From Candidatus Pelearchaeum maunauluense (GTDB lineage Archaea > Thermoproteota > Nitrososphaeria_A > Caldarchaeales > Caldarchaeaceae): a stretch of 25,421 nt of DNA. The notes below the pieces were generated by a model that saw nothing but the letters and a program-made list of their open reading frames with translations, searched no databases and was not told where the DNA came from. How positions within the stretch are numbered: the stretch's first letter is position 1; every line of letters starts with the position of its first letter. This document shows, one piece after another, positions 1 through 21,528 of this stretch. The stretch spans positions 1-25,421 of the forward strand of contig JANVYQ010000015.1 of assembly GCA_030059675.1 (NCBI GenBank), written 5' to 3'. A program made the translations under genes and the position numbers.

Positions 1-19
1 GGGGAGTACGGCCGCAAGG

Positions 20-63
<44 letters not shown>

Positions 64-229
64 CGTTGCGGCTTAATTGGAGTCAACGCCGGAAACCTTA
101 CCGGGGGCGACAGCAGGATGAAGGCCAGATTGAAGGTCTTGCCGGACGAGCTGAGAGGAGGTGCATGGCCGTCGCCAGTGCGTGCCGTGAGGTGTCCTGT
201 TAATTCAGGCAAACCGGGGTGTTCCCTCG

Positions 230-968
230 ATGGTTGCTGAAGGGCTAGATACGTGGGTATATTGGATGGCTGGAATATGGGCCGCTGATAAAGGGACTTT
301 GGCGAAGGGTGTCATGAGTATAAGAAGCAAAGACCATGAAGTAATTCAACGTTGCCAACATATCTTTACAGCTTACTTAGGTCTGGCAGAAAACAAGATA
401 AGACTTCGCACAACAAAAGGCTATAGTGCCGTAGTCAGCAGTTTCAAGATAGATAGACTTCAGATGGAGGGGTTTTCCCCAGGCCTAAGGCTCTTCCAGG
501 AGCTTATGAGGGCTCCGATGAGCTCATGAGGAGCCCCGAGGCTGATGAATCCCATGACCTACGTATGCCCATGAAAGACTACGCAGGTCAGAACCCTCAA
601 CAGAGATATACGTTGTTTCTTCCGATATTAGAAGAGTTATTGAACAGATAGTCGCTGAAAGGACGAAGCTGAGGAATGCTAAAGCTCAAGCATACCTGGC
701 TGGTTTATTCGATGGAGATGGTTCGGTAGACCCACCAAGAAGCTTACTATACTATTGTTATGGAAAGCACCAACAGCAAGAAATATCTGAGGACCGTAAA
801 CTTATAGAGGTACTTGGATTCAAAACTTCATGCGGCCCATCAGTTAGAGCATTAAAATTACGCGTTCTTAAACCACGTAACTTCGCTCCCCTCATACTTC
901 CTTGGATAGTTATTCCACGTAAGATTATAGGCCTTCCGCAACTAATTGAGGGCTACCCCCGGGTCGAA
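230..968 (+). pseudogene. Intron-encoded two-motif LAGLIDADG homing endonuclease, interrupted by a 166-bp insertion
   Basis: Motif 1 YWMAGIWAADKG is in the 230 frame. Motif 2 AYLAGLFDGDGSV (from 690) is in a different frame. Deleting 431-596 fuses them in frame (..TTKGYSA|STEIYVVSSDIRR..). SD-like GGGGTG at 216-221. Confidence 0.92.
431..596 (+). mobile_element. Non-autonomous IS607-like miniature element, copy 1, with a putative tnpB 3' end/omega-RNA remnant
   Basis: CC core at 429-430 and 595-596. Shares CAGTTTCAAGATAGATAG (439-456), CTTCAGATGG (458-467) and the terminal CAGAAC-CC with copy 2. Excision restores the endonuclease frame. Family assignment is inferred. Confidence 0.88.
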
Positions 969-1490
969 CGGACGAGACCCGCGCCCCCAGTTGCCACAAG
1001 GCCGTTAGGCGCTGGGCACTCTGGGGGGACTGCCCCGGAAACGGGGAGGAAGGAGCGGGCCACGGCAGGTCAGTATGCCCCGAATCCCCCGGGCCGCACG
1101 CGACGTTCAATGGTGGGGACAGTGGGTTGCCACCCCGAAAGGGGGAGCTAATCCCTAAACCCCACCTCAGTTGGAATCGAGGGTTGCAACTCGCCCTCGT
1201 GAACGCGGAATCCCTAGTAACCGCCCGTTACCACCGGGCGGTGAATACGTCCCCGCTCCTTGCACACACTGCCCGTCGCTGCACCCGAGCTGGGGTTGGA
1301 CGAGGACCCGTCGTTGTTGGCGGGTTCGAGTCCGACCCCGGTGAGGGGGCAGAAGTCGTAACAAGGTGGCCGCACGGGAACGTGTGGCCGGATCACCTCC
1401 TACCGCCAATCCGTACTCGCTGATAGGTGCCTGGGGAGCTGCGTTGGGTTGGGCTTGTGGGTGCGGATAGGGTGTTTGGGCCCCGTGCTT

Positions 1491-9840: not shown

Positions 9841-10187
9841 ACATTCTTCAGGGCTACTAGTATAAGCCATACACTAGCCATACTCATCGTTATTGTTTCT
9901 TGAATTGCCACACCTTGCCAAGGCCATCTCACAAACCAGATGAGCGCTGAAGCTATGCCGAATGCAAGCGCTAGGGCGCCTAGCCTAGGAGAGCCGAGAG
10001 GCCATGAGACATAGCTGTATATGAAGAGGGTAATAGGCGTGGCGATGAATAGAGTAATAGACAATGTTCTATGTATCTCTCCGAAGTCTTCGGAGAAGAA
10101 TCCGCCAAGCGCCAGGTTTATTCCTACAATTGTTAGGGGGATGAGCCACGCACTATACTTCCAAGACCTATGAACAGCCATTATGCC
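9837..10187 (-). pseudogene. DUF998-family membrane protein, C-terminal part
   Basis: GIMAVHRSWKY..LALGGFFSEDFGEIH..GVAIQE; continues in frame from the inverted middle part once reconstructed. Confidence 0.85.
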
Positions 10188-10358
10188 GCAACGGTGGCTT
10201 ATGTCTTCATAGCAGTCTCAAAATCGTTAGCCCCCTGGTTTGACTTTAGGAATAACGCATTAAGCGACTTGGGCGGCTCGGTATATCACGGCTCCCTCAC
10301 ATGGATATTCAACACAGGACTCATGCTCTCAGGTGCTTTAGTTATAGTCTTCGCGATA
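10188..10358 (+). pseudogene. DUF998-family protein, middle part, inverted relative to the rest of the gene
   Basis: ATVAYVFIAVSKSLAPWFDFRNNALSDLG..IFNTGLMLSGALVIVFAI, a typical DUF998 N-terminal motif. Confidence 0.85.
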
Positions 10359-10360
10359 GG

Positions 10361-10625
10361 GTTCTGGTCTACATCGAGATACGTGGACCTTGGCCGTCAC
10401 CAGGCCTTGGCCCCCTCTCGGGCTCGGCATCGCCCTCCAGCCCTGTCGGGTCGAACCCGCCCCACACGTCTTCGCTCAGGCCGTTTCCAGCCCGAGGTCA
10501 TCCATGTGGGGAAAGCCCCCCATCTGAAGGTTTACATCATCCACAGGCCGCTAAGCGAGCCAGACCCAATGTACATAAAAGACTTTTGTCTATTTAAGCC
10601 TATCTATCTTGAAACTGTTAGTAAC
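10361..10625 (-). mobile_element. Non-autonomous IS607-like miniature element, copy 2 (265 bp)
   Basis: GG cores at 10359-10360 and 10626-10627. An 18-nt block identical to copy 1 at 10600-10617, CTTCAGATGG at 10520-10529, terminal CAGAAC. TATA-like CTTAAATA at 10591-10598 on the minus strand. Confidence 0.88.
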
Positions 10626-10658
10626 GGCGAGGATGCCGATTATCTGAGGCGCTTTCAA
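10626..10658 (-). pseudogene. DUF998-family protein, first 11 codons (MKAPQIIGILA)
   Basis: The TTG start overlaps the methyltransferase TGA and joins in frame to the inverted middle part across the shared GCCG. Confidence 0.8.
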
Positions 10659-11527
10659 GGCTGTTCCTTCTGCGCCACAACTAGCGTGTTTCCACCTAAT
10701 AACTTGATTCCAGGCATTCTTCCAAGCAGTTTATCTAACATGCTCAATAAACGAGCCGTGGAGAGAATGATTCTATTCTTAGTGTTTTGCTGTACAACCG
10801 TTGGTATTAGCCCAGCTAGGAGAAGGGCGCTTCTCTGGCTAATTATACGGAATCCCACGCGCCTAAGTAGGCTTCGTATCTCCTTATGCGTGAAGACGCG
10901 CATATTCAGTACCTCCCTAGTTGCTGGGAGCCTCCACCTTATCAGGCCACCATCAGGCGACTTGACAAGCTTCAACATCTGCTCACTCGTGGTAACGTAT
11001 CCTATCCTGTTTCCTATTAGGCTATCAACCAGCATCCACATAGTATCTAAACTCCATTTAACATCATACCCCAATACTAGCAGGCCGCCTGGCTTCAATA
11101 TCCTATGAGCCTCCATGAGCATTCTGCCTGGGTCTACGCTGTCATGGCATATCAGTTCCCCAACCGCTATTACCATATCAGCTGAGAGGTCTCGTATGGG
11201 CACGTTGTTGGCGTCGGAGCATACTAGGCTCACCCGCTCTTCATTACCATTATTACGGACTATCCTGAGCGAGTTGTATGAGAAGTCAGTCGCCACCAGC
11301 TTCGCGTCATCCTTACCATCCAGAAGCTCCACAAACGGGTCCCAGCCAGAGCCCAGCTCCACTATCACGCCGTTATGCGGCGCGGCCCCGCATACAACGC
11401 TCAACTCAAGCTCATACAGCGACAAGTCATATGGATTCTCGCGATAAATCTTGTCTTGTTCAGCCCAAGTGGCTGATTCTGATATTTTTTCATATACCTC
11501 ACGCGTGGAGGACGCTTTCATTATCAC
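10655..11527 (-). CDS. Class I SAM-dependent methyltransferase
   Basis: IVELGSG motif I, ATDFS, CSDANNVP, HRILKPGG. Confidence 0.88.
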   Translation of the reverse strand: MIMKASSTREVYEKISESATWAEQDKIYRENPYDLSLYELELSVVCGAAPHNGVIVELGSGWDPFVELLDGKDDAKLVATDFSYNSLRIVRNNGNEERVSLVCSDANNVPIRDLSADMVIAVGELICHDSVDPGRMLMEAHRILKPGGLLVLGYDVKWSLDTMWMLVDSLIGNRIGYVTTSEQMLKLVKSPDGGLIRWRLPATREVLNMRVFTHKEIRSLLRRVGFRIISQRSALLLAGLIPTVVQQNTKNRIILSTARLLSMLDKLLGRMPGIKLLGGNTLVVAQKEQP

Positions 11528-21425: not shown

Positions 21426-21528
21426 CGCCGGGGGTGGGATTCGAACCCACGCGGCCCGCGGGGGCCGCAGGCTTTCTTTCGATTATGTGGGCTCAAGGCC
21501 TGCGCGTTATCCGCTCCGCCACCCCGGC
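21426..21528 (-). tRNA. tRNA-Ser(UGA) with an 18-nt intron at canonical position 37/38 (21474-21491); CCA not encoded
   Basis: Acceptor stem GCCGGGG/CCCCGGC, anticodon arm CAGGC-CTTGAG[intron]A-GCCTG, long variable arm, T-arm GTGGGTTCGAATCCCAC, discriminator G. Confidence 0.95.

Follow-up and report, generated by a model that had tools for sequence, protein, structure and literature searches.

Why should the only 16S rRNA gene found in an archaeal genome carry, inside one of its introns, a piece of a transposon that resembles the guide RNA of a TnpB nuclease? The question is raised by a contig of 25,421 nucleotides from Candidatus Pelearchaeum maunauluense, analysed here over its full length and referred to as the window. 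It is the entire contig C18 of a draft assembly of 21 contigs (1.79 Mb, 94% complete), which is designated G000; other G-numbers denote the genomes compared with it. At positions 431-596 the window contains an insert that splits the endonuclease gene of a 16S rRNA intron. A first-pass annotation, made from the letters of the sequence, described this insert as a promoter-less omega-RNA-like scaffold that might be expressed from the rRNA transcript, and proposed that RNA-guided homing had replaced homing by the protein. The analysis presented here leads to a more modest answer, namely that the insert is most likely a decaying passenger, the remnant of a mini-IS607 element that split and inactivated the endonuclease gene.

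The 16S rRNA intron and its split endonuclease gene

The Rfam model SSU_rRNA_archaea covers positions 1-1401 of the window on the plus strand (model positions 830-1478, 586.6 bits), so that the insert lies on the rRNA sense strand, as first annotated. The 5' exon occupies 1..212 (+), the contig beginning inside the gene at model position 830, and the 3' exon occupies 969..1401 (+). Both are supported by Rfam and by G016, an intron-less genome of the same genus, which matches positions 8-212 at 100% and 967-1401 at 99%. The exon matches 1-212 and 967-1401 abut in G016 with an overlap of 2 nt, and the same abutting is seen in at least 10 further genomes of the order; the intron therefore extends over 213..968 (+), a length of 756 nt, with a junction that is ambiguous by 2 nt and AA at both edges. 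Its ends, 216-234 and 941-959, pair in a co-fold from which the canonical 3-4-3 bulge-helix-bulge could not be drawn.

The intron site agrees with the published 16S intron locus near E. coli position 1093 (PMC4496867). The introns described there, from thermophilic archaea, share with the present one the site region, a length of about 0.75 kb, an endonuclease frame with two LAGLIDADG motifs and a patchy distribution among relatives, and degeneration of the endonuclease after fixation of the intron is expected for them (PMC4496867). The difference lies in the route, since the degeneration observed here is caused by transposon insertion, whereas PMC4496867 does not contain the terms transpos, MITE or insertion sequence.

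The endonuclease frame is present in two pieces. The N-terminal half lies at 230..430 (+), with a first LAGLIDADG-type motif, YWMAGIWAADKG, near 260, and belongs to an open reading frame (ORF) at 230..529 that continues from the endonuclease half into the insert and meets its stop at 527-529. The C-terminal half lies at 597..968 (+) and is recognized from its translation, from Pfam and from a homologue in G056; it carries the second motif, YLAGLFDGDGS, near 690, both motifs of this type being readable in the frame. The C-terminal half matches Pfam LAGLIDADG_3 with E=0.0026 and 18.4 bits, under the cut-off of 22.5, and the PDB sequence matches of the endonuclease half span the motif only (E 0.11-0.44). 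The endonuclease fragment of G056 gives spurious kinase matches in PDB (E about 0.01), and a single-sequence structure model of the C-terminal half has a predicted local distance difference test score (pLDDT) of 44.7, too low for use. Taken as a whole, the frame points weakly to the LAGLIDADG family.

A search of 401 genomes of the phylum with the endonuclease half returned a homologue on G056:C19 that is 59% identical over 66 amino acids (E=1e-20), together with six other matches with E between 0.001 and 0.01; a word-index search scored no homologue for this half. The G056 gene, the one useful relative for comparison at the insertion site and no more than 59% identical, occupies the same 16S site, is uninterrupted and reads ..MGYGRSTEVYFVSS.. 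across the insertion point. It aligns at equal length (GYGRSTEVY against GYSA|STEIY) only with 431-596 removed and the preceding GCC retained, and deletion of 431-596 yields a single open frame across the insertion site. The frame alone cannot assign the GCC to the gene or to the element, because it comprises three nucleotides. An insert-free allele of the intron did not turn up when metagenome contigs were scanned once for exact matches to the 3' flank (0 matches), near relatives possibly being left out of that collection. The insertion appears to have inactivated the endonuclease gene, and this would be its main effect.

Several side observations concern this intron and its host gene. No stop interrupts the endonuclease frame inside the intron; it crosses the 3' splice site (968/969) and closes only at 1149-1151, where the exon has a TAA. 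On a circularised intron, with 968 joined to 213, the frame would end 11 codons later at a TAG at 246-248. G056 possesses an intron-bearing 16S fragment (G056:C19, a 619-bp contig with the uninterrupted endonuclease gene) as well as an intron-less 16S sequence (G056:C31:65301-65800), and the intron therefore looks polymorphic in the G056 population. The 16S gene of the window is the only one found in the assembly, and its other half is located at the end of contig C10. The gene is split between G000:C10:57608-58376 and the start of the window, with Rfam model positions ~752-829 missing between the two parts; another intron or a repeat at a known intron site may have broken the assembly there. 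In many genomes of the order, 16S matches break off at the same window positions (25/33, 89/95, 131 and 1076/1077), and the order seems to use several other 16S intron sites.

Boundaries, family and parents of the mini-IS607 element

The element at 431..596 (+) measures 166 bp, or 169 bp with GCC. It lacks an ORF of its own, terminal inverted repeats and a target duplication; within a copy, no inverted-repeat pair was found to join both ends. All full copies in the genome read ..GCC|GTAG....GAACCC|N, with the same CC dinucleotide at both junctions. In the window, the GCC motif that marks the left edge of every copy lies at 428..430 (+), and its CC is repeated at the right end (595-596). GCC precedes 11 of the 11 own copies that bear a left end and all 14 left ends inspected in relatives, the latter being rows with left-end context picked from a noisy motif scan and one row read by eye. 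The motif is preceded by C, T or A (hence HGCC) and followed by 4-8 variable nt. The GCC at 428-430 is probably the target sequence, or transposon-adjacent motif (TAM), and the flank differs from the element's own end at position -3 (HGCC against ACCC). The first-pass annotation had placed the start at 431, the boundary at 596, the guide from 597 onward and a TGCC-like TAM at the flank; the invariant boundaries support all of this except the T of TGCC, which is not conserved. The would-be guide, assigned by the IS607/TnpB rule, is the 3' flank at 597..616 (+), in which the endonuclease frame resumes (STEIYVV..). The first 16 nt of this flank are unique in the genome, other sites having at least 2 mismatches.

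Internally, the element consists of two parts. The left-end remnant GTAGTCAGCAGTTTCAAGATAGATAGACTT at 431..460 (+) aligns to the left ends of elements on G051:C9, G060:C7 and G007:C13, and the omega-RNA scaffold remnant at 458..596 (+) comprises the last tnpB codons (~140 nt) and the right end, without ~42 nt between 509 and 510. As the first-pass annotation had noticed, the copy passes from ..GATAGATAGACTT straight into CAGATGG (458-460), without the TATA segment of a second copy in the window, and with CTT microhomology at the junction. The CTT at 458-460 is the microhomology of an internal deletion, and CTT is found at both deletion edges in G051:C9. The resemblance to TnpB C-termini noted in the first-pass annotation was also recovered by alignment: LQMEGFSPGLRLFQELMRA corresponds to residues 363-381 of the G051 TnpB (14/19 identities, pairwise E=4e-8), and the second frame, PRLMNPMTYVCP, matches the C-terminal end ..PKLMNPKSYVCPPKTT / ..LMNPKSYVCPPKTT of the same protein. 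Judged from these features, 431-596 can be described as a non-autonomous, protein-less mini-IS607 element, a derivative of the kind seen in MITEs (miniature transposable elements with inverted repeats) and palindrome-associated transposable elements (PATEs). Its description as a promoter-less stretch derived from a tnpB element, with the omega-RNA region retained, likewise appears to hold, with the proviso that the promoter scan covers bacterial sigma-70 sites and is uninformative for an archaeon.

The repeat family to which the element belongs occupies 13 loci in the genome by blastn, with E down to 1e-77 for close copies, far outside what chance would produce. Five are short copies of full length (167-172 bp), one of them the intron copy and the remaining four 94.6-96.5% identical to it; three are short copies at contig ends (C8:5-113, C13:1-45 and C15:42448-42538), and one is a short copy truncated at its 5' end. 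Two further copies, of 210-211 bp, retain the central segment, and two of about 270 bp form a second sub-family. The contig-end copies are short by their junction bases and therefore hide no full elements. Since scaffold-deleted copies (five full, three at contig ends and one truncated) outnumber the two intact ones, the spread of the family needed no intact scaffold. Sister copies lie in unrelated locations, mostly antisense. Co-orientation with an interrupted long frame is seen in one of nine full copies, the intron copy alone, and sense orientation is therefore no habit of the family. The intron copy also has private substitutions, such as T at 555 where the others have A. No copy was found in G016, where the search for clean empty sites of two sister copies ended in alignments that break at least 20 bp from the element or in flanks on different contigs. 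An exact scan for the junction of left end and core gave 0 matches in genome contigs and 0 in metagenome contigs, records of the organism's own genome possibly being left out. At one sister copy, G000:C15:40005-40176 (-), GTAG is duplicated at the left edge (GCC GTAG GTAGTCAG..).

The second copy in the window, at 10359..10628 (-), is a mini-element of 270 bp with a longer left end and a fuller scaffold, situated 27 nt downstream of a minus-strand gene; its twin at C13:34517-34783 is 97% identical. Between the shared blocks it has 67 additional nt, which include a TTTTATG stretch and are bordered on both sides by CTT. The two window copies are not states of one element: they are only about 65% alike, and the 270-bp pair thus represents a second sub-family and not an undeleted form of the intron copy. 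A 312-amino-acid plus-strand ORF (10170-11108) runs through this second copy and overlaps a minus-strand gene for 290 amino acids (10655-11527); the ORF is probably spurious.

Elements that bear tnpB and have both ends in common with the mini-elements exist, as the first-pass annotation expected of a parent; they occur only in other genera and families, and none was found in the G000 assembly. Among 18 genomes of the family searched at the DNA level, G007 and G013 contain the core, which in G007 is matched at the 3' end of a frameshifted tnpB with a similar left end before it. When 76 genomes of the order were searched with the C-terminal part of the G007 TnpB, 15 had relatives at E<=1e-10, with G000 not among them. 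Some of these genes are intact, such as the one on G051:C9 (418 amino acids). In the 210-211-bp form, positions 31-211 show an unbroken alignment with the 3' ends of full elements (last 181-182 nt, 76-83% identity), and positions 1-33 are 88% identical to the left end of G051:C9, other left ends having been recognized by eye and with a motif scan; it follows that the mini-element consists of a left end to which the 3' end of tnpB and the right end are joined. The tnpB stop in G051:C9 comes 10 nt short of the right end, so that all of the scaffold is coding as well.

The parents further disclose the type of transposon. Among five relatives' genomes searched, two contain matches to PF00239, and in G060:C7 and G060:C5 the matching gene lies directly upstream of the cognate tnpB. 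The order in G060:C7 is left end, resolvase-type gene, tnpB and a right end ending in GAACCC, and G060:C5 is alike. The G060:C7 protein passes the NCBIfam model transpos_IS607 (NF033518) with 165.6 bits against a cut-off of 110, and the sequence upstream of it, read by eye and unscored, reads like a helix-turn-helix part of the same protein. The same leader persists as a remnant in G051:C9 and G007, and the ends are common to the tnpA_S+tnpB elements of G060 and the tnpB-only derivatives of G051 and G007. By gene content and ends, the parents are thus assignable to the IS607 type, with serine-recombinase tnpA and tnpB, and not to the IS605 type that the first-pass annotation had implied. A reading as IS200/IS605 (with Y1 TnpA) or IS1341 is ruled out by the serine-recombinase partners and the shared dinucleotide, PF01797 giving 0 matches.

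Comparison with known IS607 systems supports this assignment in some respects and sets the present lineage apart in others. A clostridial IS607 has a GG core at its two junctions and TGGG as its TAM; its scaffold terminates in ..UCGG, immediately followed by the guide, and for the element studied there, a clostridial IStron from which a mini-IS was built, 40 bp of the left and 60 bp of the right end suffice for mobility (10.1101/2023.11.20.567912). As in IS607 elements and their mini derivatives, tnpB is accompanied in the parents here by a serine-recombinase tnpA, the left flank and the right end carry an identical dinucleotide, which the TAM overlaps and with which the scaffold ends, and inverted repeats and target duplication are lacking. 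Unlike them, the present element has a CC core and HGCC instead of GG and TGGG, an archaeal host and a left remnant of only 30 nt, with no recombinase found in the genome and no group I intron.

The omega-RNA scaffold and the search for its protein partners

The structure of the scaffold was derived from an alignment of 21 sequences, comprising nine own copies and 12 relatives, with the prediction made from 10 full-length ones. The family structure has 56 pairs in 11 helices, and 94.4% of the cells are paired, as compared with 29.5-49.1% in a control in which the partners were slid by 1-3 columns. Changes on both sides were found in 14 pairs, a number reached in 0 of 500 shuffles; these statistics are to be read with the structure taken from a subset of the same rows, the rows related to one another and the region coding as well. 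The two hairpins singled out in the first-pass annotation are where it had put them and correspond to elements of this structure, both with compensatory changes. GGGCTCC/GGAGCCC at 510..536 (+), identified as helix 8 (helices 8-9 when the adjoining pairs are counted), has 7+2 pairs with 97.5-100% of cells paired and 3 double-changed pairs. GACCTACGT/ACGCAGGTC at 556..589 (+), helix 11, adjoins the right end and has 11 pairs, 91.4% of cells paired and 3 double-changed pairs; its column pair 158/189 is GC in 12, CG in seven and UA in two sequences.

In the short form, alignment columns 56-100 (~42 nt) are missing. Helices 2, 3, 5 and 7 thereby lose one strand each and helix 6 is lost entirely, 24 of the 56 pairs in all, and the lost segment includes GGGTTC, the partner of the terminal GAACCC next to the guide. 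A caution in the first-pass annotation, that a missing central segment might render the copy inactive, was thus well placed, the segment being structurally important by its share of the pairs and by the covariance score. The covariance model that had been suggested there was built solely from eight relatives; it finds the intron copy at 86.4 bits (E about 2e-21), within the range of 86-99 bits for short copies, but gives 197.7 and 154.7 bits for the copies of 210-211 bp. The 270-bp pair scores 51.6-59.2 bits, with 59.2 for the second copy in the window. No Rfam family was found for the scaffold RNA at the gathering threshold.

Losses of this kind have also been found outside the genome. G007:C13 is without almost the same segment as the short form (columns 53-98), and the copies on G060:C27 and G060:C16 are without columns 94-132, which contain helix 8. 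The tnpB 3' region of the family loses segments repeatedly.

Proteins that could act on the element or on its RNA were sought in the whole assembly. Profiles PF01797, PF00239 and PF01385 gave 0 matches in G000, which thus shows no TnpA of either type, and tblastn with the TnpA of G060 against G000 likewise gave 0 matches. The sole PF07282 match in G000 is a protein of 297 amino acids on C13, with ends unrelated to the mini-elements. This locus, G000:C13:4111-7302, holds the genome's only TnpB-like gene, a 297-amino-acid C-terminal part on the minus strand in which DVN / MED / DRD motifs are readable. A 152-amino-acid TnpB-like N-terminal ORF lies at the same locus on the plus strand, convergent with this part, and the whole looks like the rearranged remnant of another element. 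In tblastn with the TnpBs of G051 and G060, a cognate TnpB was not found in G000: the hits are confined to the tails retained in the mini-elements (residues ~334-443), and an additional weak match of 63 amino acids (36-38%) falls on the separate TnpB-like N-terminal fragment on C13. No cognate TnpB was confirmed on viral contigs. At 94% completeness, the absence of a cognate TnpB from the organism is not proven. Among sequencing runs, none contains more than 6% of the window's sampled words (two DNA runs reach 6%), and no RNA run is listed.

Explanations for an insert transcribed with rRNA

The explanation preferred here, a decaying mini-IS607 passenger, can be set out as a series of events. 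As the alignment suggests, an IS607-type element would have lost its tnpA and almost its entire tnpB through a deletion between two CTT microhomologies, so that a left end of 30 nt came to adjoin the tnpB 3' end and right end that form the omega-RNA scaffold. A second deletion of ~42 nt may then have taken the centre of the scaffold. A serine-recombinase TnpA acting in trans, since lost or never assembled, would have spread the short form to at least nine places, and one copy would have landed at a GCC inside the LAGLIDADG gene of the 16S intron. There, the insert would be transcribed passively with the pre-rRNA and leave with the spliced intron. Because it stands in sense inside the 16S gene, the insert must be transcribed with the pre-rRNA, and since splicing removes it, the ribosome would be unharmed and the insertion tolerated. 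With a damaged scaffold and no cognate TnpB, the RNA most likely does nothing today.

Some observations weigh against this explanation. Of the 56 pairs, 32 can still form in the intron copy, as can both 3' hairpins; the guide-proximal end is intact, and so is the difference between GCC (flank) and CCC (self) at -3. Trimmed omega RNAs can work in other TnpB systems. Three contig ends of the draft lie in copies of the repeat, and a full IS607 could therefore be unassembled, or be located on an unbinned plasmid or virus. The intron copy is also part of a unit that is probably transcribed more than any other in the cell, and archaeal introns, excised at bulge-helix-bulge motifs, can persist as circles (PMC12558985).

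The best of the alternatives builds on these observations and supposes a working guide RNA. The intron would be its highly expressed, possibly circular precursor, and the TnpB of an unassembled or incoming IS607 would excise from it an omega RNA whose guide, from 597 onward, leads to insert-free alleles next to GCC, after which recombination would copy the insert. Position and orientation fit such a role, the guide and TAM geometry follows the IS607 rule, the self site differs from the flank motif at -3, and the paired cells and double-changed pairs of the family indicate structural constraint on the scaffold. PATE-like elements encode omega RNAs that are used in trans (PMC10055086), and TnpB can trim its own RNA out of longer transcripts (PMC12558985). 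The intron copy has nevertheless lost 24 of the 56 scaffold pairs, including the helix that holds the 3' end, and has a covariance score less than half that of the best intact copy, with no cognate TnpB found in the assembly. Its copies differ by 3.5-5.4%, and the burst is therefore not fresh; the 0 insert-free alleles in the exact metagenome scan also count against the proposal, although weakly, since exact matches alone were sought. A working guide, although coherent as a mechanism, is accordingly considered very unlikely. The stronger proposal, in which the rRNA intron serves as an expression vehicle that supplies guide RNA at rRNA levels to the TnpB of an unassembled or incoming IS607, so that RNA-guided super-homing takes over after loss of the endonuclease, is somewhat less probable again. 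Moreover, the RNA-guided homing proposed in the first-pass annotation is no replacement of protein homing but the ordinary, published role of TnpB, in which the nuclease cuts sites that lack the element beside the TAM and recombination then puts the element back (PMC10055086).

An RNA module exapted by the host is more doubtful still. The folded insert would have been kept for the fate of the intron RNA (stability, circle formation or protein binding) or as a small RNA, independently of TnpB, and this would accord with the two intact 3' hairpins, with a host RNA made in large amounts and with transposon-derived small RNAs known to have host functions (cf. PMC4615843, PMC5435999). The insert is confined, however, to one species representative, with 0 copies in G016 and 0 exact junction matches elsewhere, and its sister copies are scattered, mostly antisense, over unrelated places. 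An assembly artefact, in which a repeat copy was mis-threaded into the rRNA intron of a metagenome-assembled genome, would suit draft contigs that break at the repeat and a 16S gene that itself spans two contigs, but it is highly improbable, given that the sequences on either side are parts of a single gene, whose frame is restored to the codon when the element is taken out, and that the private substitutions of the intron copy show it not to be a collapsed consensus.

Understood as a decaying passenger, the element can be compared with known systems that combine transposons, introns and guide RNAs. In IStrons, an IS607 or IS605 element is combined with a group I intron, which lets the transposon splice from host genes. 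They resemble the present arrangement in that transposon, intron and TnpB guide RNA share one stretch of RNA, but the topology is reversed here, the remnant being a passenger inside the endonuclease gene that belongs to a spliced rRNA intron. Protein-less IS605/IS607 derivatives that keep the omega RNA are already known (PMC10055086). The PATE-like IS200/IS605 elements of Geobacillus stearothermophilus similarly consist of a left end and an omega-RNA right end and rely on the TnpA and TnpB of others, but they are moved by Y1 (HUH) TnpA via single-stranded DNA and have sub-terminal hairpins (PMC10055086), whereas the parents here carry a serine recombinase and the genome contains 0 Y1 genes. 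Archaeal omega RNAs, or sense overlapping transcripts (sotRNAs), are likewise structured RNAs that overlap the 3' end of tnpB in an archaeon (PMC4615843); those described there come from tnpB-bearing elements and were detected experimentally, in contrast to the present scaffold, which is known from sequence and has no tnpB. Circular isoforms of omega RNA have been described (PMC12558985), and the present scaffold would also be part of a circular RNA if the intron were circularised, with intron splicing as the origin of the circle here, in place of the route discussed as unknown in PMC12558985.

The locus represents a nesting at three levels, with a transposon remnant in a homing-endonuclease gene, that gene in an rRNA intron, and the intron in the only 16S gene found. 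No report of an element of this kind inside the endonuclease gene of an rRNA intron was found in the literature searched, supplements aside. The case suggests that spliced rRNA introns can be safe landing sites for mobile elements and that transposition is one of the ways in which intron endonucleases die. A further gain is an archaeal IS607 lineage whose core is CC and whose flank motif, HGCC, drawn from 25 left ends, provides a TAM prediction for the TnpB of G051:C9. The repeated scaffold deletions, in the short form, the G007 copy and the two G060 copies, can be regarded as natural experiments in the minimisation of omega RNA. If the organism does have a cognate TnpB, the intron copy would be a guide RNA driven by rRNA transcription, which would be a new thing.

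Elsewhere in the window, Rfam places a tRNA of 103 nt at 21426-21528 (-) with 48.8 bits; it is absent from the ARAGORN calls and presumably contains an intron.

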